Shown one piece after another: positions 12,026-41,332 of a stretch of 61,462 nt of DNA (positions within the stretch are counted from its first letter, which is position 1; every line of letters begins with the position of its first letter). The notes below the pieces were generated by a model. It made no database searches. It was given only the letters and a program-made list of their open reading frames with translations, and was not told the origin of the DNA. The DNA comes from an uncultured Gammaproteobacteria bacterium (GTDB lineage: Bacteria > Patescibacteriota > Patescibacteriia > UBA9570): NCBI GenBank assembly GCA_964385285.1, contig CAYLOJ010000007.1, positions 1-61,462 on the forward strand. The letters run 5' to 3'. The position numbers and the translations under genes were made by a program.

Positions 12026-12093
12026 GGTGGTGATGGACTCTACGGGTCAGTGATGTGCGTTGCCGCGACAGCACTGACTCGTAGCTTCCCCCT
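12026..12093 (-). other. Cassette-C 3' module: UAGGGGGAA, 13-bp hairpin, UCACCACC
   Basis: GGGGGAAG at 12085-12093. CUACGAGUCAGUG...CACUGACCCGUAG stem at 12040-12084. CACCACC at 12026-12033. Confidence 0.55.
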
Positions 12094-12096
12094 AGC

Positions 12097-12402: not shown

Positions 12403-12423
12403 AATAGCTCCGTGAGCCCCAGC

Positions 12424-12452
12424 AGGCTAATGGAGATTACTGTTTATGTCAA
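12424..12452 (-). promoter_or_regulatory. Sigma70-type promoter for cassette C
   Basis: TTGACA (12447-12452), 17 nt, TAGCCT (12424-12429), immediately after the stop of the upstream membrane-protein gene. Confidence 0.45.
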
Positions 12453-12460
12453 ACTAGACC

Positions 12461-13595: not shown

Positions 13596-13602
13596 AATGC
13601 TA

Positions 13603-13806
13603 TTAGACTTTAAATTTAAATAAATCTTCAATACTAACTTTAAATAATCTTGCACATTGCCAAGCGAGATAAAGAGTAGGTTGATACTTTCCTTGCTCAA
13701 TAGCATTGATCGTTTGACGGGTGACACCCAGCTTATTGGCTAATTCTTCTTGAGTGTAGCCGGCTTTAGTGCGGTAATCTTTTAAATTACTATTAATAAT
13801 AGGCAT
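13603..13806 (-). CDS. XRE-family helix-turn-helix transcriptional regulator
   Basis: The 67-aa sequence [27 protein letters not shown] is a classic Cro/C1 HTH. Confidence 0.85.
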
Positions 13807-13809
13807 AAC

Positions 13810-14178
13810 TTAGGAGCAAAATACGCCACAATCAAAAATAGTCCCCCAAACAAATAGGATCCCTCCCAACACAATAACGATCGACACTAACAATAGAGCC
13901 ATGCTAATTAACTTAGTATAAAGATTGCGCTTAAAGGTGACTGGTTCACCTAAAAAGATAGTGGCACTGATCAGTGTAGAAACCACTCCCATTGTGAGAA
14001 TGGCTAAAATAATTTTGCCTGTAGTCATAATTTCACTGGGTTGAGTAATGAACAGGAAGTAGACTACGATTAATAATTGGAAAGCTAGCCAACTACGCCG
14101 ATAGGCTTGATAAAAAAGCTGTTGTTCCCGTTCATCGGCTGGTTGATAATGCCACCAAAGTAATTTTTTGATTTGCAT
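13810..14178 (-). CDS. Small 3-TM membrane protein (paralog of 13212..13595)
   Basis: ORF track. Shares the N-terminal motif with the paralog. Confidence 0.6.
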   Translation of the reverse strand: MQIKKLLWWHYQPADEREQQLFYQAYRRSWLAFQLLIVVYFLFITQPSEIMTTGKIILAILTMGVVSTLISATIFLGEPVTFKRNLYTKLISMALLLVSIVIVLGGILFVWGTIFDCGVFCS

Positions 14179-14688: not shown

Positions 14689-15132
14689 TTAGTTGGAGCG
14701 TTGCCGTCGTTTCAGCGCAATATGAAAAATGATCGCCAATAGCGTATTGGCCAAAGCAGCCAGAGCCAGGAGCATGGGTCCAAGCCATAAGGAAGCAAAA
14801 CTATTCACTTTGGAATGCGCAGGACGCGCAGCATCAAAATAGACGCTCACTTGATCCCCAATCGCATAGGTCGTCGGGCTTTGTGTACTGTGTGGTTTAA
14901 AGCGAAATTGTTCACCAGCGGTATTATCAAAACGAATGAGTGGGCTATACCCCTTACCCTGCTGTATGACATCAATGACAGTACCCGTCACCGGAACGGC
15001 TGTTTGAATGAACAAGGCAGTGCGCCCATACCAAGTGGCAGCAGCTAACCATAATCCGAGACTCACGAGGAACAATACCAACACCGAGTGAGTCTTTAAG
15101 CGATAACGAGTGTGATGAGCGACAACAATCAT
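14689..15132 (-). CDS. DUF3592-like membrane protein
   Basis: TM - beta-rich domain - TM layout. Paralog of 17418..17867 (GTV(I/V)D..., AIGD.V.VY(F/Y)D). Start placed at the ATG at 15132. Confidence 0.6.
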   Translation of the reverse strand: MIVVAHHTRYRLKTHSVLVLFLVSLGLWLAAATWYGRTALFIQTAVPVTGTVIDVIQQGKGYSPLIRFDNTAGEQFRFKPHSTQSPTTYAIGDQVSVYFDAARPAHSKVNSFASLWLGPMLLALAALANTLLAIIFHIALKRRQRSN

Positions 15133-15159
15133 AGAATAAGTATAACACAACTACGATAG

Positions 15160-15213
15160 GGGTTGGTGATGGTCCGCGGCGGCAATAGATATAGCCGCGG
15201 ACCATCTCCTCCA
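15160..15213 (-). other. Cassette-D 3' module: UGGAGGA, perfect 13-bp hairpin, ACCAAC
   Basis: GGAGGA at 15207-15213. GAUGGUCCGCGGC / GCCGCGGACCAUC stem at 15168-15206. Confidence 0.55.
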
Positions 15214-15591
15214 TCAGCCCTGAGGCTTGGTCTGCTCTCGCTCGTAGGCGTGAACACCGGCGTAATTGCTGGTACCCGGACCGTGGCTGAACGACACGAT
15301 CCGACCACGCGCGGTACCGTCACTGCCGAGGTGAACGTACGGGGTCAGCGTCACCACCAGCGTCTGCAGCCACCCGACCACCACGTGGTTGCGCTGGGCC
15401 AATCCGGAGTAGTCGTAGTGATCATCGAACACGATGACGTACGGCCCGATCTCCAGGTAGGGCTGCAGGACACCGGACAGATCGACGCGGACATTGATGC
15501 CGCCGGTCGACTTCGGGAAGTCCACACGGGTGAACAGCTCGGTCAGGAACGTTTCGACGCCATCCATCTTCAACAATTTCACATCCAACAT
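15214..15591 (-). CDS. GC-rich cassette D: hypothetical 125-aa protein
   Basis: ORF track. High GC3 after an AT-rich first ~10 codons. Confidence 0.65.
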   Translation of the reverse strand: MLDVKLLKMDGVETFLTELFTRVDFPKSTGGINVRVDLSGVLQPYLEIGPYVIVFDDHYDYSGLAQRNHVVVGWLQTLVVTLTPYVHLGSDGTARGRIVSFSHGPGTSNYAGVHAYEREQTKPQG

Positions 15592-15640
15592 GTGTCACCA
15601 GGGTAAAGTCCGCTGTACAAGGCAGTTAGCAGACCGGTCA

Positions 15641-15669
15641 GATGTATACTAAAAATGCTGATTTGTCAA
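15641..15669 (-). promoter_or_regulatory. Sigma70-type promoter for cassette D
   Basis: TTGACA (15664-15669), 17 nt, TACATC (15641-15646). Confidence 0.45.
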
Positions 15670-25068: not shown

Positions 25069-25158
25069 AATTGATGTACGTTAATGTTGAACATCCATCA
25101 GTATAGCAAGCTTTCGCACTTCTAGGGACTAACAATCGGTTAATCCGTACAAGGACGT

Positions 25159-25205
25159 GGGAGAGGATGCAGCCGAAGCTACTTCCTCATCCCTGGTTCC
25201 TCCAG
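25159..25205 (-). other. Radical-SAM cassette 3' module: UGGAGGAA plus a UUCG-tetraloop hairpin
   Basis: GGAGGAA at about 25197-25204. GGGAUGAGGAAGUAGC-UUCG-GCUGCAUCCUCUCCC at 25159-25193. Confidence 0.5.
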
Positions 25206-25230
25206 CTCTACTGGTTTGTCTGGTTCATCA

Positions 25231-26358
25231 TCAGCGGGTCAGGATCTTGGCCTGAACATCGCGATCAACGACGAACCCACGTTCGTCACCGTCGCAACCG
25301 ATGCCACCCCAACAGGCATACACCTGCTCGCGGAGCACCGCCAGACGGAACTCTTCGATCTTCTCGAAGTCCCACTCGATGTGGTAATCGTTGCCGACCT
25401 TGATCACCCGACCGAGCGGCGGATCCCATCGATCGACGCAGCCGACGATCCGCAACTCCTCCCCCACCTTGATGAGGGCGAATAGACGAAAGCCGGCCCG
25501 ACACCACTGCGTGCGGTTCGGCACGTGCCACTCCGGAGAGAGCCACGGGAGGACCTGTTCGATCCCCGCGTCCCCGACATCCTCGGACATTCCGAAATAC
25601 AGCGGGGTATGCTGGAAGCTCGCACAGAGCTCCGCGAGGTAGCCGTAGAAGCGGACGATGTCGTCACGCTCCAGCTCGTAGCTGGTCAGCTTCGGATCGC
25701 GCCGGAAATTGGCCAACGCGTTGAAGCGGCACACATCTACACCGTTGTTGAGGCAAAACTCAGCCATCTTCTGCAGGTTTTCACGCGTCAGGTTCCGCTT
25801 GTGGAACGTGAAGGTGAGAATGATCTGCAGTTGATGTCCGGTCCGTGCCCGCCAGGCGCAGATGTTCTCAACGGCCGTGCGAATGACACGACCCGGGGTG
25901 ACGCCACGGAACACGATCGGCGTGTCCGCGGCGTCGTGCGCCGTGATCGTGATCGCACGGTAGCCGAGCTGCCAGCCACGATCGAGACGATCCTCCCAGC
26001 CGGGCTGAGTGAGGATGCGACCCGCGGACCAGGCCGCAAAGCCGTTCTCCTCCACCCGGAAGGCGGAGCCACCCTCATCCGCCAGCAACGCTTCATCGGC
26101 GAAGCTATCGGCGAGGATGTACGAGATGTCGTACCCCTGCCGGTGCAGCGAGTGAACAATCTGCATCGCCTCTTTCCGCGGCACCTCGTACGGCGCCTCG
26201 TTGAAGAAGTAACAGTGCTCACAAGCGGCCTGACAGGTCTTCTTCCCCACCGTGTTCGCGGCGTGGAAGTAGATGGTGATGTCCTGCGGGCGCAACTGCC
26301 CGAACGGGACGTTAAAGTCGACCGGCGGGAAGCAGCGCAGAGTCTTTAGAGCCATCAT
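25231..26358 (-). CDS. GC-rich radical SAM enzyme (subfamily unassigned)
   Basis: CQAACEHCY is the CX3CX2C motif followed by an aromatic residue. About 63% GC in a hand-counted sample. SD CUGGAGG. Antisense and alternative-frame ORFs are judged spurious. Confidence 0.75.
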   Translation of the reverse strand: MMALKTLRCFPPVDFNVPFGQLRPQDITIYFHAANTVGKKTCQAACEHCYFFNEAPYEVPRKEAMQIVHSLHRQGYDISYILADSFADEALLADEGGSAFRVEENGFAAWSAGRILTQPGWEDRLDRGWQLGYRAITITAHDAADTPIVFRGVTPGRVIRTAVENICAWRARTGHQLQIILTFTFHKRNLTRENLQKMAEFCLNNGVDVCRFNALANFRRDPKLTSYELERDDIVRFYGYLAELCASFQHTPLYFGMSEDVGDAGIEQVLPWLSPEWHVPNRTQWCRAGFRLFALIKVGEELRIVGCVDRWDPPLGRVIKVGNDYHIEWDFEKIEEFRLAVLREQVYACWGGIGCDGDERGFVVDRDVQAKILTR

Positions 26359-26507
26359 GTGGCCTCCAGATCTAGAGTTTCGAGATGAAAAGAGCTGACA
26401 GTAGAGACCTCCGGTGAAGCGAACTTCACCAGAGATTACTACTAACGTATTAGCACGTTAATACTCCGAAGAACGCACAATAAACCATTCTTGTTCGATG
26501 TTGTCAA
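26359..26507 (-). promoter_or_regulatory. Promoter plus ~115-nt structured 5' leader of the radical SAM gene
   Basis: TTGACA (26502-26507), 17 nt, TTTATT (26479-26484). The leader holds GGUGAAG-UUCG-CUUCACC (26413-26430) and a UAACGU/ACGUUA hairpin. Confidence 0.45.
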
Positions 26508-26559
26508 TAGTTGGAGATTTGGACATAAGAGTTGGAAGATAGATTTGAAATTAAGCTGC

Positions 26560-26700
26560 AAAAAATCCGCCAAGCGGCGGACGAAACGGGTAATGCTATT
26601 TGAGCTCGACTCAAACACCATCACCCACCCTATGGTGGTGACTATTCATATAGTTAGTGGAGAGATAGCGGGAATTCATATTCAAGTGTTTTAACGTATT
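26560..26700 (-). ncRNA. Candidate ~140-nt small transcript S1 (or mRNA for a 22-aa micro-ORF)
   Basis: Own promoter: TTGACA at 26730-26735, 17 nt, TATCTT. Terminator CCGCC-GCUU-GGCGG plus U6 at about 26560-26581. Contains ORF 26611..26679, MNSRYLSTNYMNSHHHRVGDGV, with no SD. Confidence 0.35.
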
Positions 26701-26802
26701 AAAACAAAGATACATCGGTTCCACTCCCCTGTCAATCTAGTTTTCCACAAGAACTGCTGGAAATAGAAGTGCCCCGATACAATGCGTCGGGGCAGCGCTG
26801 CA

Positions 26803-27042
26803 TCAGCAGGGATCGCGGAACTGCGTCCGTTCCACCGCGGGATAAGCCGCGATGTCCTGGTCGTAGTTCTGCATGAGGCGGAGAGCCAGGCCGCGAGCGT
26901 TCTGCTCGAGCCTGGCCAACCGCTTCGCCTTGCTGGTAGCCTTGATCTGCCGAAGCAGCTCAAGGTATTCACGCCACAGATCCGCAGGCGGCGGGGGCGG
27001 GGGCGGGGGCTTCCAACTCGCTACTGGACCGGTGCTAGGCAT
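26803..27042 (-). CDS. GC-rich 79-aa protein with a Pro8 tract and helical C-terminus
   Basis: ORF track. Strong SD AGGAGGAACCG before the ATG. Followed by a GCCCCGA/UCGGGGC hairpin. Confidence 0.55.
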   Translation of the reverse strand: MPSTGPVASWKPPPPPPPPADLWREYLELLRQIKATSKAKRLARLEQNARGLALRLMQNYDQDIAAYPAVERTQFRDPC

Positions 27043-27079
27043 CGGTTCCTCCTAAGAAAACGGGTGAAATCGCGACACC

Positions 27080-27121
27080 ACGCTAGCGCTACTTGACGCT
27101 TTTGTCAAGGCATATTAGAGT
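27080..27121. promoter_or_regulatory. Overlapping divergent promoters built on the palindrome CTTGAC-N6-GTCAAG
   Basis: Minus strand: TTGACA (27103-27108), 17 nt, TAGCGT. Plus strand: TTGACG (27093-27098), 17 nt, TAGAGT (27116-27121). Confidence 0.4.
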
Positions 27122-27198
27122 GTTCGCATGATTTTTGCAGGACTACTCTTAACCACTACCATTACCACAACACGGACATAACGTGGGTAGTTTGTTTA

Positions 27199-27235
27199 TA
27201 AAAAAACGATCGCCCACACAGGGCGATATTTTTTT
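27199..27235. terminator. Bidirectional rho-independent terminator
   Basis: AUCGCCC-ACACA-GGGCGAU hairpin (27209-27227) flanked by A8 and T7. Confidence 0.75.
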
Positions 27236-27347
27236 GCAGACTTCGTATCACCTACTAAAGACTCACATCAACTGCGCTGATTGTCCTGCGGGAGGGATTC
27301 CACTCTCCCCCAGAACCTGTCACGCGTAGTGACTGGAGGACGAGACA

Positions 27348-27539
27348 ATGTCTACGTATTACGGACAACTGATGGAAGCAGAGTTGGCGGTGCGTGGCCT
27401 GGGCCCTGATGGCAAGCCACTGCAGGGTGACCCAGACATGCATGGCGGCCACCCGGACGCAAGCCCGGACCCCGTGAAGCCGGCGGAAGGCTCGCCTCTG
27501 CCGGCGACGAACGAAGAAGAGGGCTACCACATGCCGTAG
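27348..27539 (+). CDS. GC-rich 63-aa acidic Pro/Gly-rich protein
   Basis: ORF track. SD UGGAGGA lies 7 nt upstream of the ATG. Preferred over the two antisense ORFs. Confidence 0.5.
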   Translation: MSTYYGQLMEAELAVRGLGPDGKPLQGDPDMHGGHPDASPDPVKPAEGSPLPATNEEEGYHMP

Positions 27540-27559
27540 TGAAGGACGCGGCGAGGAGC

Positions 27560-27602
27560 AGGAGGAATTGAGCGCCGCTAGATTTCAGATCTGGCCGCGC
27601 TC
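27560..27602 (+). other. 3' module of the 27348 gene: AGGAGGAA plus a long hairpin (same orientation as its plus-strand ORF)
   Basis: AGGAGGAA at 27560-27567. GAGCGCCGCUAGAU-UUC-AGAUCUGGCCGCGCUC at 27570-27602. Confidence 0.5.
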
Positions 27603-27642
27603 TTTCCATTTCTGAACAGTGTTCAGGATGCGTAACTTTGTC

Positions 27643-27671
27643 TTGACAATGGAGCTTTCTTTCAATAGTCT
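27643..27671 (+). promoter_or_regulatory. Sigma70-type promoter of Y1 RNA
   Basis: TTGACA, 17 nt, TAGTCT. Confidence 0.5.
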
Positions 27672-27676
27672 GGAGA

Positions 27677-27868
27677 TGTTACTTTTTCATTCCCGTGTGT
27701 TTAAAAAGGTACGCACCTTCAAGCAACGACTCGAGATCAGCCCTCTAGCGGGTTTGGCCACATTCCCCATGGAAATGCGGCACTGCACGTGTAGTCGTGC
27801 CTGACAGCTGTCAGATTATTTTACGATTTTATTTAGTTTTAATGCGACAGGTCACCAGCCTGTTTTTT
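27677..27868 (+). ncRNA. Y-family structured leader/sRNA, copy Y1 (terminated ~75 nt before the FG-GAP gene)
   Basis: Homologous to Y2 and Y3 (GCACCUUCAAG, GGGUUUGG, UUCCCCAUGG blocks). Ends in ACAGG-UCACCAG-CCUGU plus U6. Confidence 0.5.
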
Positions 27869-32354: not shown

Positions 32355-32993
32355 CTACTGAGCGCTCATCATCCGGATGTACGCCACCTGCGCACCTTCG
32401 GCCGTCGGGTCAAAGGAGTAGGTGGCGGCGGTCGGAGCAACACTGCGCGTGGCAGAGATGCTCTTGGTTCGCATCGTGGACGAAGAAGCCGAGACGAGCT
32501 GGACGTGGTTGCGTCCCAACTGCTGCGACTCCCGCGCGACGATGTAGTTGAGCGCGAGGGTGTCGAGCGGAGTCCGGGAGTAGACCAGGTAGAGGTCCTC
32601 CTGGCCAAAGGGCGGGTTGATCTGCAGCGGGGAAGCTTCGGTACCGAACGGCACGGTACCTCCAGCGATAACGTAGTTGGACTCTCCGTCGTATGGAAAG
32701 ACCAGTGCCACGTTTGAAGCAGAGTCAACGTTGACGAGGTACACGTACCCCGTCTGCTGGATGGTCGCCACCATCCAGAGCTTCTCACCGTTGTGGAAGA
32801 TCCGCTCCGGATCCACAGCGCCGGACATCGTCTGGTAAGTGACAGTGGCAAGGTTGGTGGGTGCCTGGATCACACCGAGGCACTTCGCGCCGGGCGGACA
32901 CGCGTAAGCGGGCGTGACTGTGACAAGGGCGAGGAAGAAGACGACAAGGAGCAACCACTGGGGCAGTGTCTTGAAGTCATTGAAGGTAGACAT
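32355..32993 (-). CDS. GC-rich secreted protein, DUF4384-like
   Basis: Signal peptide ...LLLVVFFLALVTVTPAYA. GYVYLVNVDSASNVALVFPYDG resembles the DUF4384 core. Start set at the ATG at 32993; the track TTG is at 33011. Confidence 0.6.
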   Translation of the reverse strand: MSTFNDFKTLPQWLLLVVFFLALVTVTPAYACPPGAKCLGVIQAPTNLATVTYQTMSGAVDPERIFHNGEKLWMVATIQQTGYVYLVNVDSASNVALVFPYDGESNYVIAGGTVPFGTEASPLQINPPFGQEDLYLVYSRTPLDTLALNYIVARESQQLGRNHVQLVSASSSTMRTKSISATRSVAPTAATYSFDPTAEGAQVAYIRMMSAQ

Positions 32994-33040
32994 GGAATCT
33001 CGATTTGCCAACGCGCGTTGATGGCATCTAGGGTAGGGGT

Positions 33041-33200
33041 AAAAAAGGAATGGTCGCGCGCCAACAGTTAAGCATTGCTATGCCAGTCTGATGCAGCGCG
33101 GCCATTCATTTAGTAGCAGTCAGTTGTTAATGATCGTGTCTAAGCGTCGTTTCGGGAATTACTGTCTTCTGGAAGAAGATAAAATCACCAGCAAAAACGA
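33041..33200 (-). ncRNA. Terminated structured leader upstream of cassette H
   Basis: Starts after promoter P_H. CGUCGUUU/AAACGACG helix. Long GAAUGGCCGCGC / GCGCGCGACCAUUC stem followed by U6 (33041-33107), about 50 nt before the ATG. Confidence 0.4.
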
Positions 33201-33206
33201 CGTCAG

Positions 33207-33235
33207 ATGGTACCATGATTTTTCCACTTTGTCAA
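33207..33235 (-). promoter_or_regulatory. Sigma70-type promoter P_H
   Basis: TTGACA (33230-33235), 17 nt, TACCAT (33207-33212). Confidence 0.5.
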
Positions 33236-33255
33236 TGGCTAAGATAAACTAGTTT

Positions 33256-33320
33256 GTAGACTACTGTCTTCAGAATTTGAACCCTATTGTGCAGGCGTTG
33301 CGGCAGTGGCAACAAGTTTT
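33256..33320 (-). repeat. R repeat copy R1 (resembles a tRNA 3' half)
   Basis: Minus strand AAAACUUGUUGCCACUGCCGCAACGCCUGCACAAUAGGGUUCAAAUUCUGAAGACAGUAGUCUAC, followed by the palindrome AAACTAGTTT and the promoter. Confidence 0.7.
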
Positions 33321-33365
33321 AACTTCTTTAAGCTTACCCTTTAGTACTTTTCGTTATATGAATAT

Positions 33366-33863
33366 TCAGTATGTTAGGGCTTCAACAAGGGCCTTGCAAA
33401 AACGCTCTTGCCGCAACACAACACCCTTAGTATTGTGCCATGAACCGTCTCCAGGAATATATAACACGTGTTGACCATGCGCATCCCGATAGATCAGCTT
33501 TACTGCAACAGCGCTGCCATACGCAGTGATGATATGTTGAACGCTAGCAGAGACCACATCTGATTTATTGATACTAATGTTATCCATCGGCTGAAGAGCT
33601 GTGAACGTATAAACGCCCTTCATACAGGTAATACGTATATACCAGGGTGCAATAATTTTACGTCTAGTCGCGTACACAAAAAAAATGCCTAGCACAAACA
33701 TAACACCAACCCCTAACACACTGAGGGGCTCATCGCTACTAACAGGAATTTCTCCCTGAGCCCACAGCCAAATAAAACTACCAAATAATAGACTCATGAT
33801 AACAGGAAAAAATAAAATAATGCCTAGCCGGTCACGAGTTGAATGTCTCCTTTCAAATTGCAT
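33366..33863 (-). CDS. Hypothetical membrane protein (2 N-terminal TM helices)
   Basis: ORF track. Host-like GC. The ATG lies 9 nt after R2 with no promoter in between. Confidence 0.6.
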   Translation of the reverse strand: MQFERRHSTRDRLGIILFFPVIMSLLFGSFIWLWAQGEIPVSSDEPLSVLGVGVMFVLGIFFVYATRRKIIAPWYIRITCMKGVYTFTALQPMDNISINKSDVVSASVQHIITAYGSAVAVKLIYRDAHGQHVLYIPGDGSWHNTKGVVLRQERFCKALVEALTY

Positions 33864-33871
33864 ATAGTAAT

Positions 33872-33936
33872 GTAGATTCCTGTCTTCAGAATTTAAACCC
33901 TATTGTACAGGCATTGCGGCAGTGGCAGCAAGTTTT
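33872..33936 (-). repeat. R repeat copy R2
   Basis: About 85% identical to R1. Lies between hammerhead 1 and the 33863 ORF. Confidence 0.7.
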
Positions 33937-33950
33937 AGCCGGTTCAATTA

Positions 33951-34016
33951 TCCCCTTTCGTCCTTAATCTTGCGATCTAGACTCGTCAGTTTAGGCATTA
34001 CCTAAAGAGGGTGATG
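33951..34016 (-). ncRNA. Type III hammerhead ribozyme, copy 1
   Basis: Minus strand CCCUC^UUUAGG-UAAUG-CCUAAA-CUGACGA-GUCUAGAUC-GCAA-GAUUAAGGAC-GAAA-GGGG. All core nucleotides are present (CUGANGA, G10.1-C11.1, GAAA, A15.1-U16.1, C17). Stems I and II are loop-closed and stem III is open. Predicted cleavage between 34007 and 34006. Confidence 0.8.
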
Positions 34017-34101
34017 AGTGGGGCCTTGGGTTGCAGGAGACGTTGGAACGTTCGCCGCAACACACGTAGGTCCCACCCGCCCTCATACACCATCTGTCCT
34101 C
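34017..34101 (-). other. Conserved structured domain between the cassette-I stop and hammerhead 1
   Basis: Homologous to 36536-36610. Helix GUGGGACC/GGCCCCAC and inner ACGU-UCCA-ACGU hairpin. Confidence 0.5.
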
Positions 34102-34482
34102 TTACTGGCAGCTCACCTCCCAGCCACCGAACGGCTCAGCGGCTCCGATGATGAATGACGGTTCGGCCTCTGGTGCCTGCGGGCATTGCACCCGCCACTC
34201 GTCCGCGAGCGCCTTGGCCCGCTTGATACTGAGCGGCGGGTCCTGGAACGCCTCTTCACTCATCTGGGTGCCGAGTGAAGTGACATGACAGCGCTTGTCA
34301 CTGTGCTGCTTCCAGAACGCGCAGGCAGACCCCAGGTCGTACTTGACGGCCTTTCCATCAGGGCCGAGAGTCGACGAATTCTTCTGATAGAGTACGAATC
34401 CGCGGACTGCGTTATCGGCAGGCATAGCAGCCATGATGCTGAGAACGATGAGAAGAGTGAAGGCAGTCTTGAAAGTTCGCAT
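34102..34482 (-). CDS. GC-rich secreted 126-aa Cys-containing protein (cassette I)
   Basis: ORF track. N-terminal signal-like helix MRTFKTAFTLLIVLSIMAAMPA. Confidence 0.6.
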   Translation of the reverse strand: MRTFKTAFTLLIVLSIMAAMPADNAVRGFVLYQKNSSTLGPDGKAVKYDLGSACAFWKQHSDKRCHVTSLGTQMSEEAFQDPPLSIKRAKALADEWRVQCPQAPEAEPSFIIGAAEPFGGWEVSCQ

Positions 34483-34513
34483 GGGCGCCTTATCCAGGTG
34501 GTGAGAGATACCG

Positions 34514-34564
34514 TTCCACCTGCTTACAGCTGACTTCTAAAAAATCAGATCTAAGCAAGTGGAA
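34514..34564 (-). promoter_or_regulatory. Conserved 13-bp leader hairpin followed by CUCACCACCUGG, upstream of cassette I
   Basis: UUCCACUUGCUUA...UAAGCAGGUGGAA. Homologous to 37137-37186. Confidence 0.45.
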
Positions 34565-34591
34565 CGAGTAATGTATGAGGGTTGTAAAGAA

Positions 34592-34774
34592 CAAAAAACA
34601 GGCGGTTAGCCTGCGTTGTGGAATAGAGAATGAATGGTTGTTTGGCTCGTACGATTACCTCGTACAGTGTCACATTACCATAGGGAACGTGACCAAACCC
34701 ACTTCATAACTTTTCCATTCAGTTATGCTAGTAGTTACTTGAAGGTGCATGTTTTGAGGCATGTCCTCAAAAAC
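34592..34774 (-). ncRNA. Y-family structured leader/sRNA, copy Y2
   Basis: Promoter TTGACA (34804-34809), 17 nt, TATAGT (34781-34786). Four hairpins. Terminator CAGGC-UAACC-GCCUG plus U6 at about 34593-34613. Confidence 0.55.
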
Positions 34775-34817
34775 AGTGGCACTATACTCATGCATATGAG
34801 TTATGTCAAGAATTGCT

Positions 34818-34883
34818 GTAAACCACTGTATTCAGAATTTGAACCCCATTGTACAGGCGTTGCGGCAGTGGCAACAGGTTTTA
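34818..34883 (-). repeat. R repeat copy R3
   Basis: Lies directly upstream of the Y2 promoter. A 12-nt R-end fragment (AGAGUCUACAUA) also overlaps the stop codon at about 34929-34940. Confidence 0.7.
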
Positions 34884-34939
34884 CGGCCTGTATTGGCTTG
34901 ATTTAATAGCCACAGCATTTTTGGAGAATTATGTAGACT

Positions 34940-36250
34940 CTATGACTGCATTGGATACTTAGCCATGAACGCTTCTAACTCGGCAGATAATTTAGCTTGT
35001 TCGGCCTGTAAACGTGTGTGTTCAGCCTGAGCTTGATCTAGCTCGTCGCCATATTGGTTTAAGTGGGGATCAATTGCTTTTTGAAAATCTGCATGTCTAG
35101 CCGCTTGATCGTGTGCCTGGTACTGGCCACGTGGCAAGTTATGTTGCCAAATGTTTTTCTCTACCCGCGATACTTGAAACCAACCAATGGCAGCACCTGC
35201 CGCTGCCCCTAACGCAGCCATTGGAATGTTTGGTTCACCAGTCTGCCCCACGTTGTACATGACACCCGCCATGCCCATAATGCCAGCAGTACCTAAAGTG
35301 ATATGCGCTACCTTTAACATTTCCCAAATTTGATGAGCAGTTACCCGTAATTGAATAGAGGCATCTCTTGCATCATAGGCATGTTGGCGAGCTGCTAAAT
35401 ACTGCTCAGCATCTTCTGCATCTACCGCTAATTCAAAATATTGTGCCAGCAATTCATTCAAGCGTTGGCCAGCCGTACGTATCTGTTCAATTAAGTTGGT
35501 CACTGCTGGTTCGGGTTCGTTGACTGCAGGTTGGCGCGGATCTTTGAATTTCACGTTACCATCACTCCCCAACCGATCAATTTCTAACTCTATCTCATGA
35601 ATTTCTTCTCGCAAAGATCGTAACTCTTCAGTCAGAGTAGTAATTTGTAGATTGCGATTTTCTGGAGTACCAGCGCGTTGTTCCGCCCGGCGTTGTTTGG
35701 CAGCTCGATAGCGTTCTAATTCTGGGTACTGAGCAAACCAACGCTCAGAATAATCGTGAGATTCCTCCATACGCGACAAACCAAATTCCACCGCTGAACC
35801 AGCCATGGCCCCACCAGCTGTGGCCAACGCTGTCATGGCAGGATCCTTAGTGAGCATATACGCTCCAGCACCAACACCAGTGCCTATAATTGAACTAGAA
35901 GTAACGTAACGTGTTACTGCCCAAGCCAGTTTAGCTGCTTTAGCTTTTATCTCGGCAAAACGTTGAGAATTTTGATTAAGTTGTTCAAGTGCTTGAATAC
36001 TGCGTTCTGCTCCTTCCTGAGCTTGCAACAATTTATAGTAGTGACTTAAGGCACTATCAAATTTTCGACCTGATTCTGCTAAATAGTCCAAATAGGCCTT
36101 TAAGGTTTCTGGAGTGGCTTCACCTTGGAATTCTAAAAGATTTTTAGCATGCTCTTCAGGTTGATGGTTAGGCAACGCAACCTTTGGTTCCAAATGGACT
36201 ATCGGTTCCGGTGGACGACGAAAGGGTTGACGAGTACGTTCAATACTCAT
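34940..36250 (-). CDS. Hypothetical coiled-coil protein with two glycine-zipper membrane segments
   Basis: ORF track. GTGVGAGAY...GGAMAGSAV and GTAGIMGMAGV...LGAAAGAAIGW. Confidence 0.6.
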   Translation of the reverse strand: MSIERTRQPFRRPPEPIVHLEPKVALPNHQPEEHAKNLLEFQGEATPETLKAYLDYLAESGRKFDSALSHYYKLLQAQEGAERSIQALEQLNQNSQRFAEIKAKAAKLAWAVTRYVTSSSIIGTGVGAGAYMLTKDPAMTALATAGGAMAGSAVEFGLSRMEESHDYSERWFAQYPELERYRAAKQRRAEQRAGTPENRNLQITTLTEELRSLREEIHEIELEIDRLGSDGNVKFKDPRQPAVNEPEPAVTNLIEQIRTAGQRLNELLAQYFELAVDAEDAEQYLAARQHAYDARDASIQLRVTAHQIWEMLKVAHITLGTAGIMGMAGVMYNVGQTGEPNIPMAALGAAAGAAIGWFQVSRVEKNIWQHNLPRGQYQAHDQAARHADFQKAIDPHLNQYGDELDQAQAEHTRLQAEQAKLSAELEAFMAKYPMQS

Positions 36251-36431: not shown

Positions 36432-36459
36432 ATTTTAGCAGATTTTAGGAAAAAATCAA
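36432..36459 (-). promoter_or_regulatory. Candidate promoter for the 36416 operon
   Basis: TTGATT, 16 nt, TAAAAT, immediately downstream of hammerhead 2. Confidence 0.4.
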
Positions 36460-36470
36460 GCGCAAATGAT

Positions 36471-36535
36471 TCCCTTTCGTCCTTGATCTTGCGATCTAGA
36501 CTCGTCAGTTTAGGCATTACCTAAAGAGGGTGATT
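36471..36535 (-). ncRNA. Type III hammerhead ribozyme, copy 2
   Basis: Same core as copy 1. The single stem II difference (GAUUAAGGAC to GAUCAAGGAC) converts a G-U pair to G-C. Predicted cleavage between 36526 and 36525. Confidence 0.8.
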
Positions 36536-36610
36536 GAGTGAAACCTTGGGTTGAAGCTGACGTTGGAACGTCACCAGCAACACACTTAGGTTCCACTCGC
36601 CCCTCATACA
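36536..36610 (-). other. Conserved structured domain between the cassette-J stop and hammerhead 2
   Basis: GUGGAACC/GGUUUCAC replaces GUGGGACC/GGCCCCAC of copy 1 (compensatory). GCUG/CAGC replaces GCGG/CCUGC. Confidence 0.5.
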
Positions 36611-37108
36611 CTAGTACCGCATGCACACCTGCGCCGTCAGCTCTTCACAGTTCGCAACGTGTGAATCTGGAGTACTCGCGAGACACTGTTCGTACAGGTA
36701 TCGAGTAGCGACGGGGGTGCACAGAGTGGTTGGATCGAACTGTTCGTAGTCCGACCACGGAGCCATGATCGGCCACTCATCCCACTTCGTTGGCATTCGA
36801 CCCAACTGCAGCGCGCGCCAGTTGCAGTTCGACTCGAGTGCGAGAAGTTTGATACTGGCACCCTGGGTATTCATCAGAATGACCTGCATCTGCTCCTCGT
36901 CACACAAAGGCGGCGGGTGCAATGTAGCGTCCATTTCCGTGAGCATGTACCGGAAGAGATCGGACATCGCCCGCTCTCTATCAAGTGACAACTCGAGCTT
37001 GTGAATCTTCTTGGCCTGCTCGATGAGCGCGTCCTGCTTTCGATGAGCGCACCCGCTGCTCAGGAGGATGATGAGGAGGACGACGATGGTCTTCAGCTGT
37101 GTGTACAT
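36611..37108 (-). CDS. GC-rich lipoprotein, 165 aa (cassette J)
   Basis: Lipobox LLSSGC. Seven further Cys. SD GGGAGAG. Confidence 0.65.
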   Translation of the reverse strand: MYTQLKTIVVLLIILLSSGCAHRKQDALIEQAKKIHKLELSLDRERAMSDLFRYMLTEMDATLHPPPLCDEEQMQVILMNTQGASIKLLALESNCNWRALQLGRMPTKWDEWPIMAPWSDYEQFDPTTLCTPVATRYLYEQCLASTPDSHVANCEELTAQVCMRY

Positions 37109-37136
37109 TTGTCTCTCCCAGGTGGTGAGATTAGGG

Positions 37137-37186
37137 TTCCACCTGCTTACAACTGACTTCGTAAAATCAGCTCAAAGCAGATGGAA
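37137..37186 (-). promoter_or_regulatory. Conserved leader hairpin followed by CUCACCACCUGG, upstream of cassette J
   Basis: Homolog of 34514-34564. The downstream UCUCACC...GGGAGAGA could sequester the SD. Confidence 0.45.
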
Positions 37187-37212
37187 CAGATAGTGTATGA
37201 AGGTTGTAAAGA

Positions 37213-37401
37213 ACAAAACAGCAGGTGTTTCACCTGCTTTCACATTACGATTGATTGTACTCATCTAGACCTCTTTACAGGCAACGCGATTAACTCGCGC
37301 GGTACTACGCCACCATAGGGGGTGTAGTCGAACCCACTTGAACCTGTGTTCAAGTTGTTTCTAGAAAGTGCATGTTTTTACAGATGTGTATTCTGTAAAA
37401 A
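37213..37401 (-). ncRNA. Y-family structured leader/sRNA, copy Y3
   Basis: Promoter TTGACA (37431-37436), 17 nt, TACCAT (37408-37413). Terminator GCAGGUG-AAA-CACCUGC plus U-run at about 37214-37237. Confidence 0.55.
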
Positions 37402-37460
37402 CGCGCCATGGTACACCAAAATACATGTTTTGTCAAGACCTAATAGACACTGCTTTGTAT

Positions 37461-37525
37461 GTAGACTCTGTCTTCAGAATTTGAACCCTATGGTACAGAC
37501 GTTGAGGAAATGGCGGCAGGTATTA
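37461..37525 (-). repeat. R repeat copy R4 (most diverged)
   Basis: ...ACGUCUGUACCAUAGGGUUCAAAUUCUGAAGACAGAGUCUAC, upstream of the Y3 promoter. Confidence 0.6.
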
Positions 37526-37573
37526 GTATTCACTAGCTCTATTCACCTCTATTGAGATGAACACAGTATGCGT

Positions 37574-37660: not shown

Positions 37661-38203
37661 CTACTTCCGCCGGCGGAATCCAAACAGCGGGAAGAGCAGC
37701 GTTGCTGCGAAAGTAATACCTTGATTACATCCTCCGCACTCGACAGAATCCTTGTCGTCTCCCGTATCGCTCTCCCCAGAATCGATCTCGACCGACTGGG
37801 TGTAGAGGTTCACGCTGGTGCCGTCGACGAAAACCGCGAGGGTCGAATCCCGGTTTCCCTCCAACCAGGCCTCGTAGAGGCTCTCGGGGATGTACGCCGT
37901 GAACTCGTCACCGGTCAGGTCATAGTCGAAGTCCTCCCGCCCGTTGGGGAAGAGATCCGACTCACTGGCCCACGTGGACAGCCATTCGTAGTTGCAGACC
38001 TCATCGCCGTCGTCGAGCAGGAAGTTGTACACGACCTGGATTGAGTCGTAGCCGCTTGGGCTCTCGACGCCCGGGGTGAACGAGTTGGCATCGACCACGA
38101 TGGCGGTCGCCGACTCGCAGAATGCGTCGTTTGAGCCGTCGGCTCCCATGGTGTAGTCAGCGTCATCGGCGAGTGCTGCCGACAGGAACAATGAAAACAA
38201 CAT
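37661..38203 (-). CDS. GC-rich secreted acidic protein with a MYXO-CTERM/GlyGly-CTERM-like sorting tail (cassette L)
   Basis: Start moved to the ATG at 38203 (MLFSLFLSAALA signal peptide, SD UAGGAGAG). C-terminus ECGGCNQG-ITFAATLLFPLFGF-RRRK. Confidence 0.6.
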   Translation of the reverse strand: MLFSLFLSAALADDADYTMGADGSNDAFCESATAIVVDANSFTPGVESPSGYDSIQVVYNFLLDDGDEVCNYEWLSTWASESDLFPNGREDFDYDLTGDEFTAYIPESLYEAWLEGNRDSTLAVFVDGTSVNLYTQSVEIDSGESDTGDDKDSVECGGCNQGITFAATLLFPLFGFRRRK

Positions 38204-38316
38204 CACTACTCTCCTACTACTTCTGCTGGAACATTCCAGCAGCCAAGCAACTTTTCGAGTTACGAGGACTAAATAGACTATCGCGTAATCTATTCCATCC
38301 CAGTAATTCGACAAAC

Positions 38317-38460
38317 AAAAAAGACCCTTACTGGGTCATTTCCTAAAAACCTCTTCATCAGAGGGAACAACGACCGGATGGTCTTTTGTTTTGAGTGTTG
38401 TTAACGGAGTGCAGCCTAGCTCCGTCTCGTTACGTAACGAGATTAAATTTTCAATGAGGC
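38317..38460 (-). ncRNA. W-family structured leader/sRNA, copy W2
   Basis: Hairpins UCUCGUUAC/GUAACGAGA, CGGAG/CUCCG, AACAAC...GACC-AUCC-GGUC...GUUGUU and CCUCU-GAUGA-AGAGG. Terminator GACCC-AGUAA-GGGUC plus U6. Confidence 0.5.
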
Positions 38461-38464
38461 CAAC

Positions 38465-38493
38465 AGGTTAAGGCAAAATGTGATTTTTGTCAA
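38465..38493 (-). promoter_or_regulatory. Sigma70-type promoter of W2
   Basis: TTGACA (38488-38493), 17 nt, TAACCT (38465-38470). Confidence 0.45.
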
Positions 38494-38513
38494 TAGGTAA
38501 CGTAAACTAGTTT

Positions 38514-38578
38514 GTAGACTACTGTATTCAGAATTTGAACCCTATTGTGCAGGCATTAAGGCAGTGGCAGCAAGTTTT
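38514..38578 (-). repeat. R repeat copy R5
   Basis: It occupies exactly the position that the tRNA-Glu 3' fragment occupies in the W1 unit. Confidence 0.7.
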
Positions 38579-38602
38579 ACAGTTCGTAAACTGAATATAA
38601 AA

Positions 38603-38630
38603 ACAAAAAACACCAGCGAATGACTGATGT
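38603..38630 (-). terminator. Rho-independent terminator of cassette K
   Basis: CAUCAG-UCAUUCG-CUGGUG plus U6. Confidence 0.6.
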
Positions 38631-38673
38631 TTTTTGGGGTGGGTATCTTCTTTCTGCTCGATATGAATCGGCA

Positions 38674-38716
38674 GTGGTGAGATACCAGCGACCCTTACGG
38701 ATCTAACCTATCCTCC
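38674..38716 (-). other. Cassette-K 3' module: CGGAGGAUA, GUAA-tetraloop hairpin, CACCAC
   Basis: GGAGGA at 38711-38716. GAUCC-GUAA-GGGUC at 38690-38703. CACCAC at 38674-38679. Confidence 0.45.
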
Positions 38717-38732
38717 GAATCCTAACATGAAG

Positions 38733-39266
38733 CTATGGGCAGGTATGTCCATCATCGACGTTACCGTCGCAGTCATCATCGATGCCGTCGCAGTTCTCGT
38801 CGGGGGCACCAGGGTGAATTGCTGCGTTGGTGTCATCGCAGTCACTGGAACCAAGCGCGTAGCCCTCGGGGGGCTCGGCCGCACAAAAGTAGTCCCCTGT
38901 CCCTGCTCCGTAACCATCTTCATCCAGGTCCGGATAATAGATGGTCTGGCCGGTCAGCGTTCCCGGCCCCTCGTCTTCGTCGATGGCCCCGTCACAATCG
39001 TTGTCGATGCCATCGCAGGCCTCGGAATCTTCGGGACTCCTTCCACCATAGACGTCATCACGATCATCATCGCAGTCATCGTCATTGGTGACGTATCCTG
39101 CCGGGACGGGGTCACCACCACAGGCCTCCCAGATTTCCCGGGGATCACCACGACCATCGCCATCGAGATCGGCATACCAGGTTTTTGTAGGGTCGCCGCA
39201 ACCCGTATCGTTTTTTACAACGTTGACTGTGCATGCAAGAAGACCGAGGAGTAGAACGAGCAACAT
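38733..39266 (-). CDS. GC-rich lipoprotein with MopE-type putative metal-binding Cys/Asp repeats (cassette K)
   Basis: Lipobox LGLLAC. Two repeats of the form DCDD...PGAPE.CDGIDNDCDG preceded by DLDGDG(Y/R)G. Confidence 0.75.
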   Translation of the reverse strand: MLLVLLLGLLACTVNVVKNDTGCGDPTKTWYADLDGDGRGDPREIWEACGGDPVPAGYVTNDDDCDDDRDDVYGGRSPEDSEACDGIDNDCDGAIDEDEGPGTLTGQTIYYPDLDEDGYGAGTGDYFCAAEPPEGYALGSSDCDDTNAAIHPGAPDENCDGIDDDCDGNVDDGHTCP

Positions 39267-39437
39267 GTACTTCTCACAAAGACGTCCTAAACCGTCCCCT
39301 ATTTTTCAAGCGTTGTGGACTAGCTGTTCAGGCAGCTATTTTTAGCACTACTGGTTGCTACTAAAACTAAAGTCCTGACTGTATCCCTAAACATACAGAG
39401 ATAAAGTTAGAACGTTACTTTAAGAAACTAGGCAATA

Positions 39438-39581
39438 AAAAAAGACCCTTACTGGGTCATTTCCTAAAAACCTCTTCATCAGAGGGAACAACGACCGGAT
39501 GGTCTTTTGTTTTGAGTGTTGTTAACGGAGTGCAGCCTAGCTCCGTCTCGTTACGTAACGAGATTAAATTTTCAATGAGGC
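39438..39581 (-). ncRNA. W-family structured leader/sRNA, copy W1
   Basis: Part of a ~203-bp direct repeat (39438-39640 versus 38317-38519) with only 3 mismatches, all in the promoter spacer. Confidence 0.5.
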
Positions 39582-39585
39582 CAAC

Positions 39586-39614
39586 AGGTTAATCCAAAAT
39601 GTGGTTTTTGTCAA
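39586..39614 (-). promoter_or_regulatory. Sigma70-type promoter of W1
   Basis: TTGACA (39609-39614), 17 nt, TAACCT. Confidence 0.45.
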
Positions 39615-39634
39615 TAGGTAACGTAAACTAGTTT

Positions 39635-39654
39635 GTAGCCCCACAGGGAATCGA
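39635..39654 (-). repeat. 20-nt duplicate of the tRNA-Glu 3' end (att-like direct repeat)
   Basis: gtagccccacagggaatcga is identical to 39793-39812. It cannot fold as a tRNA on its own. Confidence 0.8.
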
Positions 39655-39750
39655 CCACTCCGCCCAATTCAGAAATTGGGCTCCGGGCCGGGGCTTGTGC
39701 TCGTCTGTCACTGACAGCCGTGCTCGCCCGTTCGATTCCTCCACGAACCA
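39655..39750 (-). other. Orphan GC-rich fragment without an ORF, carrying a GGAGGAA + hairpin module
   Basis: Minus strand GUGGAGGAAUCGAACGGGCGAGCACGGCUGUCA-G-UGACAGACGAGCAC... It lies between the two copies of the tRNA 3' end. Confidence 0.4.
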
Positions 39751-39751: not shown

Positions 39752-39792
39752 AAAAAAATAAAAACCCCACGGATGTGGGATTTTTATTTTTC
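39752..39792. terminator. Bidirectional terminator after tRNA-Glu
   Basis: CCCAC-GGAU-GUGGG hairpin (39766-39779) flanked by A- and T-runs. Confidence 0.7.
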
Positions 39793-39793
39793 G

Positions 39794-39865
39794 TAGCCCC
39801 ACAGGGAATCGAACCCTGGTTTGAGCGCTGAGAACGCTCCGTCCTAACCGTTAGACGATGAGGCC
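39794..39865 (-). tRNA. tRNA-Glu(CUC)
   Basis: 72-nt cloverleaf folded by hand: GGCCUCA/UGGGGCU acceptor, GUCU/GGAC D stem, GAGCG-UUCUCAG-CGCUC anticodon arm, 4-nt variable loop, CAGGG-UUCGAUU-CCCUG T arm. CCA is not encoded. Confidence 0.85.
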
Positions 39866-39964
39866 AAAAAATGCTTCGCTATTGTATCCGACTTTACAAT
39901 ACAATTCAAGATCAACTGTTCCATCGCAATGACAAATGGCAAAAAATGTGAGATAATTCTGCAT

Positions 39965-41332
39965 ATGAATATACATGAACGCCCAGCTACACGTCATCAT
40001 AACGATAGCGAAGAAGTCAAAGTGCTTAATCAGGTGGAAGGCCAACCCTCTGATGATACCGGAGAAGTTGCCCCTGATCTGAACGATACAGAAACAGCTC
40101 CGGACCATGCCGAAACACTGGCTCAAATCGAACAAATCCAATCCTTGCTGGAACGACAAAAACAACAAGTCAGTAAAGAACGTGGCGCGTTTGGTCGTCT
40201 AGTTTCGCTATTTAAAGAGAAGATCATGCGGACGGATTCTGAAGAAAAGAAACTGTCTAGCAAGATCTCTGCCTTAGAGCAATGGCGTAATAAGTTACTC
40301 GCCGATCCATCCGACACTGGTTCTGCTCGTGAATTCCTCAAACTCAATCATAGTAATGAACTGCTTGCTACAAGTGATCATGATCGCCGGTCAGATCGTC
40401 TGGCTACTACTCTATTAGAACGAGCAGCTACCGCTGGCAATGTGCTCGATGAAGGTGAGGCAAACCGTGCTGCCGAACTCATAGCCAAAGAAGAAGATGA
40501 AATTGCTGCCCGTTTTTTTGATGAAGGTGATGAGCTGAATAAACAGGCTGAATTGGAACAGACTCTACAAGAACGTACAACGAGTGCCTATAAAGAAAAA
40601 TTAGCCTCTATCCAACCATCCGTTGAGGCCAAGATTGCCGCACTACAACAAGCTGCTGAAGATGACCGTGAGATTAATTCTGAATTAGCTGAATTGTCAC
40701 GCTCTAAAGATGGTAGGCTGATCCATAGAGATCGTGTGGTTGAGACATGGTTTAACCTAGGCACCGCGATGAATTTAGACAGTGAAATTGAACAAGCCAA
40801 AAAACCACTGACCAAGTTATACCAAGAACAACTGCACAAAGGTGCTAAATCTATGCGTGCTCAAATGAAAGCCTTTGAAGGCTTATTAAGCGGACGCTTT
40901 AGTATCAGCAAGTTTTCTGGAATTATCGAACAGGTGCGACGCGAATTAGGACCAGGTTTAGTCATCGATAAATCGATGCGTGATAGTGCCGATGCTGATC
41001 TGGCTGGTATGCGCATTAAAGATCGCTTAGAACGCATGCAAAAAACCTTACCGACAGAGATTAAAAGTTTGCTACAACATAAAGATACCGTTGAATTATA
41101 CAGCCTAGGTGGTGGAGATATTGGCGCGATCGACGGACAGACGGTCGTAACCATTCCAAGTGAACTACTAGCAAAATGCGCTATTGATGCCGGTGAAGTA
41201 GATCGACTACTCCCCTCTTCATTGGAAGATTTACAAAACTACGCTCGTCAGCCAGACAAGGATGTGCTTGCTGAACTAGCAGCTGCAAATCAGCAGGATC
41301 TATCCGGCTATCAAGATAAAGAAGTGGCATAG
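39965..41332 (+). CDS. Hypothetical coiled-coil protein
   Basis: ORF track 39929..41332. Start tentatively placed at MNIHERP. Confidence 0.55.
   Translation: MNIHERPATRHHNDSEEVKVLNQVEGQPSDDTGEVAPDLNDTETAPDHAETLAQIEQIQSLLERQKQQVSKERGAFGRLVSLFKEKIMRTDSEEKKLSSKISALEQWRNKLLADPSDTGSAREFLKLNHSNELLATSDHDRRSDRLATTLLERAATAGNVLDEGEANRAAELIAKEEDEIAARFFDEGDELNKQAELEQTLQERTTSAYKEKLASIQPSVEAKIAALQQAAEDDREINSELAELSRSKDGRLIHRDRVVETWFNLGTAMNLDSEIEQAKKPLTKLYQEQLHKGAKSMRAQMKAFEGLLSGRFSISKFSGIIEQVRRELGPGLVIDKSMRDSADADLAGMRIKDRLERMQKTLPTEIKSLLQHKDTVELYSLGGGDIGAIDGQTVVTIPSELLAKCAIDAGEVDRLLPSSLEDLQNYARQPDKDVLAELAAANQQDLSGYQDKEVA

Follow-up and report, generated by a model that had tools for sequence, protein, structure and literature searches.

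Two near-identical direct copies of a short module, termed W, flank the gene K, which encodes a lipoprotein-like protein with MopE repeats, in the 61,462-nucleotide (nt) stretch of contig CAYLOJ010000007.1 (assembly GCA_964385285.1, an uncultured bacterium labelled Gammaproteobacteria and placed by GTDB in the Patescibacteriota). This whole stretch is referred to as the window. Both copies belong to an array of seven units that extends over 7.5 kilobases (kb), from position 39792 to approximately 32300, starting at the 3' end of a tRNA-Glu(CTC) gene. The array contains five copies of a site of approximately 75 nt, R, and one hybrid of R and tRNA sequence, R0. All coordinates are those of the window, and all features of the repeat and of the array lie on the minus strand. 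The tRNA gene and the units next to it (c0 to c2) comprise the following features, with lengths of open reading frames (ORFs) given in amino acids (aa).

39909-39881, minus strand: promoter of tRNA-Glu, TTGAAT-N17-TACAAT, from the promoter scan.
39793-39865, minus strand: tRNA-Glu(CTC), found by ARAGORN and by the Rfam tRNA model (55.7 bits), with the 3' end …GGGGCTA as attB- or attI-like anchor of the array.
39752-39792, minus strand: intrinsic terminator after the tRNA (hairpin CCCACATCCGTGGGG and T-run), first part of the 'empty' unit c0.
39636-39750, minus strand: hybrid site R0, with an R-like 5' part (…CAATTTCTGAATTG…).
39438-39635, minus strand: module W2, 5' end of cassette c1 (order W2, ORF K, terminator, R5), with junction-proximal DNA at 39635-39615, -35 box at 39614-39609, -10 box at 39591-39586, predicted RNA from about 39582 to 39438 and terminator stem at 39458-39444.
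38733-39266, minus strand: ORF K, 177 aa, lipoprotein-like N-terminus, MopE metal-binding repeats (PF11617, E 1.3e-12), GC content 0.58.
38604-38636, minus strand: terminator of c1 downstream of K, from the terminator scan.
38515-38585, minus strand: R5, which closes c1 and ends …AGTCTA followed by the junction (nhmmer E 1.5e-23).
38317-38514, minus strand: module W1, 5' end of cassette c2 (order W1, ORF L, R4), with -35 box at 38493-38488, -10 box at 38470-38465, predicted RNA from about 38461 to 38317 and terminator stem at 38337-38323.
37661-38203, minus strand: ORF L, 180 aa, signal peptide, C-terminal Cys-rich segment followed by a hydrophobic tail and RRRK, GC content 0.56.
37460-37531, minus strand: R4, which closes c2 (nhmmer E 6e-20).

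A repeat search of the window returned W as part of a direct repeat of 216 nt with 96% identity (38302-38517 and 39423-39638). The block of identity proper is 201 nt long (W1 38317-38517, W2 39438-39638), and its two copies are 1121 base pairs (bp) apart. In the preliminary description of this locus, the near-identity had been set at 203 bp (38317-38519 and 39438-39640) with three differences; the repeat itself was confirmed, while a base-by-base count gave four mismatches. Three of these (38472, 38473 and 38483) are located inside the 17-nt promoter spacer, a placement with p ~6e-4 if substitutions were distributed uniformly over 203 nt. The fourth (38518/39639) lies beyond the shared module within the preceding attachment (att)-like recombination site. 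The RNA part of W (147 nt) is 100% identical between both copies. The block extends from the CTA/C junction common to R5 and R0 to the T-run of the terminator, and the sequences on either side of the two blocks are unrelated. Unitigs of the wastewater metagenomes X1 and X2 match all junctions of the array with 100% identity at 4-6x depth; the path through W is not phased by them because the 201-nt W exceeds the word size of the assembler. A search for long-read runs with this locus found none. In X1, W1 and W2 carry the same spacer alleles, which suggests homogenisation between the copies. The two 201-203-bp copies probably constitute the 5' module that two neighbouring mobile cassettes have in common, rather than a free-standing duplication.

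The boundary at which W begins recurs throughout the array, as tRNA-Glu, R0 and R1 to R5 all end with CTA followed by C. The core of R is GGGTTCAAATTCTGAAKACAGTAGTCTA, then C, and its five copies were retrieved with nhmmer E-values of 1e-20 to 1e-23; a 21-mer from this core occurs five times, compared to 0.00 expected. In R0, the last 24 nt (39659-39636, GGTCGATTCCCTGTGGGGCTA) are a copy of the tRNA-Glu 3' end with one deletion. R0 also gave a tRNA-like (mascRNA) match, which at E~1 is at chance level, and its fold has z-scores of -1.4 to -2.5. For R1 to R5, a resemblance read by eye is confined to the T-arm and acceptor region (AGGGTTCAAATTC…CTAC). A function of R as tRNA-like RNA was rejected, as its RNA folds no better than shuffled sequences. 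The R core has no match in IMG/VR, and R has none in Rfam save the chance-level one of R0. Beyond R4, the array continues with the following features.

36440-37459, minus strand: cassette c3, with promoter at 37436-37408 and leader X with terminator at 37238-37220.
37108-36611, minus strand: ORF of c3, lipoprotein, GC content 0.56, followed by trailer Y at 36602-36465.
34940-36250, minus strand: 436-aa ORF between trailer Y and R3, GC content 0.46, no family.
34817-34889, minus strand: R3 (nhmmer E 3.7e-23).
33944-34816, minus strand: cassette c4, with promoter at 34809-34781 and leader X' with terminator at 34614-34598.
34482-34102, minus strand: ORF of c4, GC content 0.59, followed by trailer Y' at 34082-33946.
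33870-33943, minus strand: R2 (nhmmer E 2.9e-22).
33328-33869, minus strand: cassette c5, membrane-protein ORF at 33863-33366, GC content 0.43, no leader.
33255-33327, minus strand: R1 (nhmmer E 1.4e-23).
32355-33254, minus strand: c6, the last unit, with promoter at 33235-33207, a different leader and a DUF4384 ORF of GC content 0.60; no R follows.

These units share regulatory modules to different extents. A TTGACA box is found 8-24 nt past the junction in c1 to c4 and c6 as well as in the related loci L001 and L012. Between c6 and W, only the first ~45 nt are common, comprising junction-proximal CAAACTAGTTTAYNTTA and the -35 box. Cassettes c3 and c4 (36440-37459 and 33925-34816) have in common the leader X of ~330 nt and the trailer Y of ~138 nt with 77-96% identity, and they enclose unrelated GC-rich ORFs. 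Their similarity ends approximately 10 nt before the start codon and resumes just past the stop codon, and the leader terminator stems of the two cassettes differ by compensatory changes. X and X' have the same layout as W, in which a promoter is followed by a structured RNA, tandem terminators, a spacer of 110-170 nt and the ORF. In the leader-bearing cassettes, the ORFs have a GC content of 0.56-0.62 within a genome of 0.44-0.50.

Replacement of cassettes at the corresponding position was found in related loci. Three of them, L011 to L013, were retrieved via a 45%-identical homologue of the gene at 39929-41332, and all three have a tRNA-Glu(CTC). L011 and L012, which like L013 encode an identical neighbour protein (P0002), are identical through tRNA-Glu to GGGGCTAC and then contain unrelated inserts, one of 480 nt with an ORF on the opposite strand and one of 1345 nt that comprises a 401-aa ORF as well as a full R. 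Their sequences coincide once more from the R core into a flank of 80+ nt, with three differing positions in the R core; L013 matches L012. A scan with the R core revealed true homologues in several JGI contigs and in two metagenome-assembled genomes (MAGs), one of Candidatus Paceibacterota and one with the label Gammaproteobacteria; these two are the R-bearing MAGs among the GTDB representatives scanned. The Paceibacterota-type loci L004 and L005 are identical to the end of tRNA-Glu(TTC), GGGGCTA, and then diverge, and L003 has after R what L004 has after the tRNA (CCAAAGAGGAATTGACTATGGCC…). Between tRNA and R, L004 carries an 11.3-kb element (83-11182) with a tyrosine integrase and a large serine recombinase; the latter abuts the tRNA junction, and its ORF extends ~38 nt into the tRNA gene. 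The defence cargo of this element consists of a type III restriction-modification system, a SocA/Panacea protein and AbiV.

Elements that target tRNA genes are recognized by the position of insertion and by their boundaries. Here, insertion is exactly at the 3' end with tRNA-Glu left intact, the units are bounded by repeats of the att core (CTA/C), and the same flank follows either the tRNA or an internal att site. As far as sequence comparison can tell, these junction patterns are signatures of site-specific insertion and tandem accretion at the tRNA 3' end. A site-specific recombinase encoded elsewhere would exchange strands at CTA/C, either between the tRNA end and R or between two R sites. 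New units would enter beside the tRNA and push older ones outward, as in an integron or in tandem islands linked to tRNA or ssrA genes. A cassette of the W type would then consist, from the crossover onward, of ~20 bp of junction-proximal DNA, the promoter, the ~145-nt RNA with four hairpins and a pair of terminator-like hairpins at its end, and an unrelated GC-rich ORF for a secreted protein. Homologous exchange between W1 and W2 would remove one 1121-bp unit, with a product identical to that of a site-specific excision of c1. The larger finding at this locus is likely to be a tRNA-Glu-anchored array of mini-cassettes with exchangeable regulatory heads.

The promoter at the head of W had been described as TTGACA-N17-TAACCT. 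Its perfect -35 box and 17-nt spacing hold, whereas the -10 box TAACCT is weak and agrees with the consensus at 3/6 positions, for which reason the W promoter is absent from the list of the consensus scan. This -10 box lines up with TACCAT and TATAGT -10 boxes of other cassettes. The five hairpins proposed for the W RNA were all recovered in the minimum free energy or the centroid fold, and folds of truncated W keep the same hairpins. Both W terminators and the hairpin CCUCU-GAUGA-AGAGG, which is followed by U5, score as terminator-like. The predicted 5' end GGCCUCAU had been reported to match the start of tRNA-Glu, and this match in fact reaches 10 nt (TTGGCCTCAT). W (39438-39584) and tRNA-Glu (39793-39867) also have GACGGAGC in common, in the same order as TTGGCCTCAT, and covariance models detected no likeness of W to tRNA. 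In the comparison with Rfam 15, which the preliminary description had called for, no family overlapped W even at E<=10, and the only gathering-level match in the window was tRNA-Glu. Two structural candidates were rejected: a permuted tmRNA or tRNA with W as one half, in which the 3' strand of R0 would pair with the 5' strand of W, since ARAGORN found no tmRNA in the window, W1 is without the partner and there is no plausible tag frame, and a hammerhead reading of CUGAUGA, which has no Rfam match and is located in the loop of a simple hairpin.

Exact core words of W had no match in JGI metagenome contigs or in IMG/VR, and blastn-short together with a W covariance model recovered only W1 and W2 from the window and 8 loci. 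Contigs of metagenomes X1 and X2 with 80-85% identity contain no fewer than three diverged copies resembling W in other contexts; their details were read from 30-nt consensus ends only. In one copy, hairpin 1 (UCUCGUUACGUAACGAGA) is apparently swapped for CCUUACCC…GGGUUAAGG after the same AAAAUUUAA, and the 3' strand of the outer stem reads CUCGUU as compared to GUUGUU in W. In two copies, the terminator stem GACCC/GGGUC has apparently become GUGUCC/GGGCAC, followed by U-runs. Another observation is a copy with a TATAGT box just upstream of GACGGAG, which lacks hairpin 1. The W-like copies apparently keep hairpin 1 and the terminator with different sequences, which suggests, on these partial data, a structured RNA family.

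W had been considered either a portable leader or a small RNA (sRNA) duplicated along with its cassette. That it is a portable module heading two cassettes stands, and the encoded proteins downstream of its copies are indeed unrelated, K belonging to the MopE/PF11617 type and L being an ORFan. The promoter scan detected no other promoter between W and K or L. On this layout, transcription from the cassette promoter would mostly end at the W terminators, and the foreign ORF would be expressed by read-through only. A function of W as cis-acting leader and insulator is the reading favoured here, with somewhat less than even confidence. Leaders that contain a terminator, such as attenuators, riboswitches and T-boxes, likewise place a promoter, a structured RNA and an intrinsic terminator before an ORF. 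Similar orders of promoter, RNA, terminator and ORF occur in type III toxin-antitoxin loci and in the CI leader RNA of phage P4. W differs from such systems in its lack of an Rfam match at E<=10 and of an identified antiterminator fold, no alternative having emerged when the truncated folds were compared. It also differs in that the genes downstream encode unrelated secreted proteins and not toxins. Of ten contigs of metatranscriptome X3 that match the region of 30-48 kb perfectly, nine fall in the array, which suggests that the array is transcribed; these RNA-seq data are unstranded and too sparse for transcripts to be defined.

Several observations weigh against the interpretation as a cassette array headed by leaders. 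No recombinase domain was found by Pfam in the 20 window ORFs scanned (the remaining window ORFs were judged from their translations) or in the scanned ORFs of L011 to L013. The short-read unitigs of X1 and X2, at 4-6x, revealed no excised circle, empty site, K copy-number variant or variant joint, and the cassette replacements observed concern relatives and not this exact strain. Neither the fetched loci nor the scanned collections contain a homologue of W, its -10 box agrees with the consensus at only half of the positions, and its fold is marginally below shuffled sequences in energy (z -1.8), with 10 of 200 shuffles folding equally well. The only RNA contig over W2 (39491-39641) has no start at the predicted +1; it covers the promoter and the junction, and therefore reflects read-through, antisense transcription or DNA. 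The presence of two strong terminators before the ORF is no less compatible with a free-standing sRNA than with a leader. Finally, the cassettes of L012 and L001 are leaderless, and translation starts right after the promoter.

According to the best surviving alternative, which is nevertheless unlikely, W is the gene of a trans-acting sRNA that is carried by cassettes as a regulator of host or cassette genes or as an addiction or immunity RNA, and separate weak promoters drive K and L. Such a gene would be expected to form a complete unit from promoter to terminator, as W does with its two consecutive terminator-like hairpins, and the W terminator lies 110-170 nt away from the ORFs. Furthermore, W1 and W2 differ in the promoter spacer but have 100% identity over the RNA part, and a conserved single-stranded C/A-rich segment (ACUCAAAACAAAA) is located in the part that all W-like variants have in common. 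The absence of a detectable promoter between W and K or L speaks against an sRNA. In addition, complementarity between W and R, the junctions or the tRNA region was limited to 7-8-mers, and a discrete species of ~145 nt is without transcript support. A special case is presented by recombinase guide RNAs such as the bridge RNA of IS110 elements, in which a non-coding RNA at the element end has loops complementary to the target and donor cores. This role was rejected for W: its best complementarity to any of these regions spans 7-8 nt, the lack of complementarity to the recombination sites counts against a guide, and no DEDD-type recombinase was found.

An origin of the repeat by local segmental duplication of the ordinary kind, or by gene conversion among neighbouring intergenic regions, with no cassette system involved, is improbable. 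The copies are adjacent and near-identical at a distance of 1121 bp, and the identical spacer alleles in X1 point to homogenisation, as would be expected of such events. A chance duplication does not account for a block that runs exactly from CTA/C to the terminator between unrelated flanks, for c6, which lies 5 kb off and has only the junction-proximal part and the -35 box in common with W, for the same sharing of modules by c3 and c4, or for W-like copies in other contexts.

Quite improbable, too, is that the order R0-W-K-R5-W-L is partly a choice of the assembler and that the chromosome carries tRNA-R0-W-L next to a separate 1121-bp circle of W-K-R5 or tandem copies of it. The W unitig of X1 has two entries and two exits with no distinguishing single-nucleotide polymorphism, and the depth of W is ~1.5x that of its flanks. 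The assembly of the window, by contrast, tells the copies apart by three such polymorphisms near the R5 and R0 sides, and K and L have the same depth as the flanks (3.6-4.1).

A classical integron array, or a cluster of attC sites lacking an integrase (CALIN) with R as attC, is highly improbable: single-gene cassettes in one orientation, conserved sites of 60-80 nt between them and ORFan or secreted cargo would fit, whereas the five R sites, folded as single-stranded DNA on both strands, reach -3.6 to -11.4 kcal/mol with z-scores of -0.9 to +1.1 against shuffles, there are no RYYYAAC or GTTRRRY boxes at the R ends, c1 to c4 and c6 bring their own promoters (TTGACA-N17, 8-24 nt inside) where integron cassettes are generally promoterless and use Pc, a tRNA 3' end serves as the anchor, and the window contains no intI, the divergent neighbour at 39929-41332 being without Pfam or NCBIfam match. 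The attC hairpin model was ruled out by the single strands of R, which fold no better than shuffles. The array is not an integron because R lacks the attC fold, the cassettes have their own promoters and no recombinase was found among the scanned ORFs of the window. It nonetheless works like one, as it shares with integrons mostly single-gene co-oriented cassettes, one conserved site per cassette that is homogenised within the array, a fixed entry point and ORFan or secreted cargo. In contrast to integrons, entry is at the 3' end of tRNA-Glu, the cassettes bring a promoter and often a terminated leader, and the candidate recombinases come from the relative L004, which encodes a large serine recombinase together with a tyrosine integrase of the phage type.

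The closest kin of the array of mini-cassettes are tandem islands linked to tRNA or ssrA genes together with their integrase-less derivatives. Cis-mobilizable elements (CIMEs), which lack an integrase, and arrays of staphylococcal cassette chromosome (SCC) and pseudo-SCC elements are further cases of tandem accretion. Shared features are insertion at the 3' end, the proposed displacement of older units by newer ones and att copies between units. Recombinase-less units flanked by att sites, the 24-nt tRNA copy in R0 and the full-size element of L004 with its recombinases and defence cargo also fit such islands. Tandem accretion of integrative elements at tRNA or tmRNA genes has been described for the tycheposon islands of Prochlorococcus (bioRxiv 10.1101/2020.12.28.424599) and for the ssrA islands of Dehalococcoides, which have serine recombinases (PMC3146451). 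In contrast to these islands, the units of the array are 0.16-2.6 kb in size and mostly consist of one gene, the repeated site is the conserved R and not a partial tRNA, and heads (W, X) and tails (Y) are interchangeable. Literature searches returned no description of the R site or of mini-cassette arrays at tRNA-Glu.

The cargo proteins of c1 and c2 have only distant relatives or none. The best relatives of K are at most 47% identical, the named ones belong to Myxococcota, Bacteroidota and Planctomycetota, and the closest of them (L014) lies in an unrelated genomic context. Exact matches to the protein sequences of K and of the glyceraldehyde-3-phosphate dehydrogenase (GAPDH) yielded no further contig. 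One X1 contig omits 184 nt of ORF K (38793-38978) between MopE repeats, a length that is not a multiple of 3; it may represent a repeat-number variant or a paralogue. For L, no homologue was found among 5.8e9 proteins, nor a match in Pfam or NCBIfam. Its predicted C-terminal end, …ECGGCNQGITFAATLLFPLFGFRRRK, resembles a C-terminal sorting signal.

Divergent from the array, the plus strand encodes a 467-aa protein (39929-41332) without Pfam or NCBIfam match; its 45%-identical homologue has the same position beside GAPDH in L011 to L013. Outside the R array, the window contains GC-rich islands without R sites at 1651-2400, 11051-12550, 15051-15650 and 25101-27750, which peak at 0.62-0.67 in 300-nt windows against a background of 0.44-0.50 and include a 42-nt GC-rich repeat at 11188 and 11715. 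Two adjacent low-GC ORFs for paralogous membrane proteins (13212-13727 and 13810-14178) contain a 63-nt repeat with 79% identity and the common motif W(R/W)xYQPADEREx(E/Q)L(Y/F)xQAYRRS.

It is possible, though doubtful, that R arrays at tRNA-Glu represent an undescribed integron-like form of gene capture in distant uncultivated bacteria, including the lineage of the window and Candidatus Paceibacterota. In this form, a trans-acting recombinase would insert mini-cassettes at the end of the tRNA, and the cassettes would consist of interchangeable scaffolds, with heads W or X and tails of Y and R, into which foreign GC-rich ORFs are set from start to stop, and W would be a new RNA family that gates the captured genes. 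If this is true, there would be a second, mechanistically different route to integron-like stockpiling of genes, in which the tRNA 3' end serves as the entry point, a short site of the double-strand type replaces the folded attC, and cassettes express themselves under exchangeable regulatory heads. The ORF-precise replacement within conserved scaffolds, as between c3 and c4, is relevant to the old question of cassette assembly. In the same case, W and X would be new families of structured RNA linked to mobile DNA, and the arrays would illustrate how uncultivated bacteria with small genomes in wastewater and groundwater gain and swap genes for surface, secreted and defence functions.

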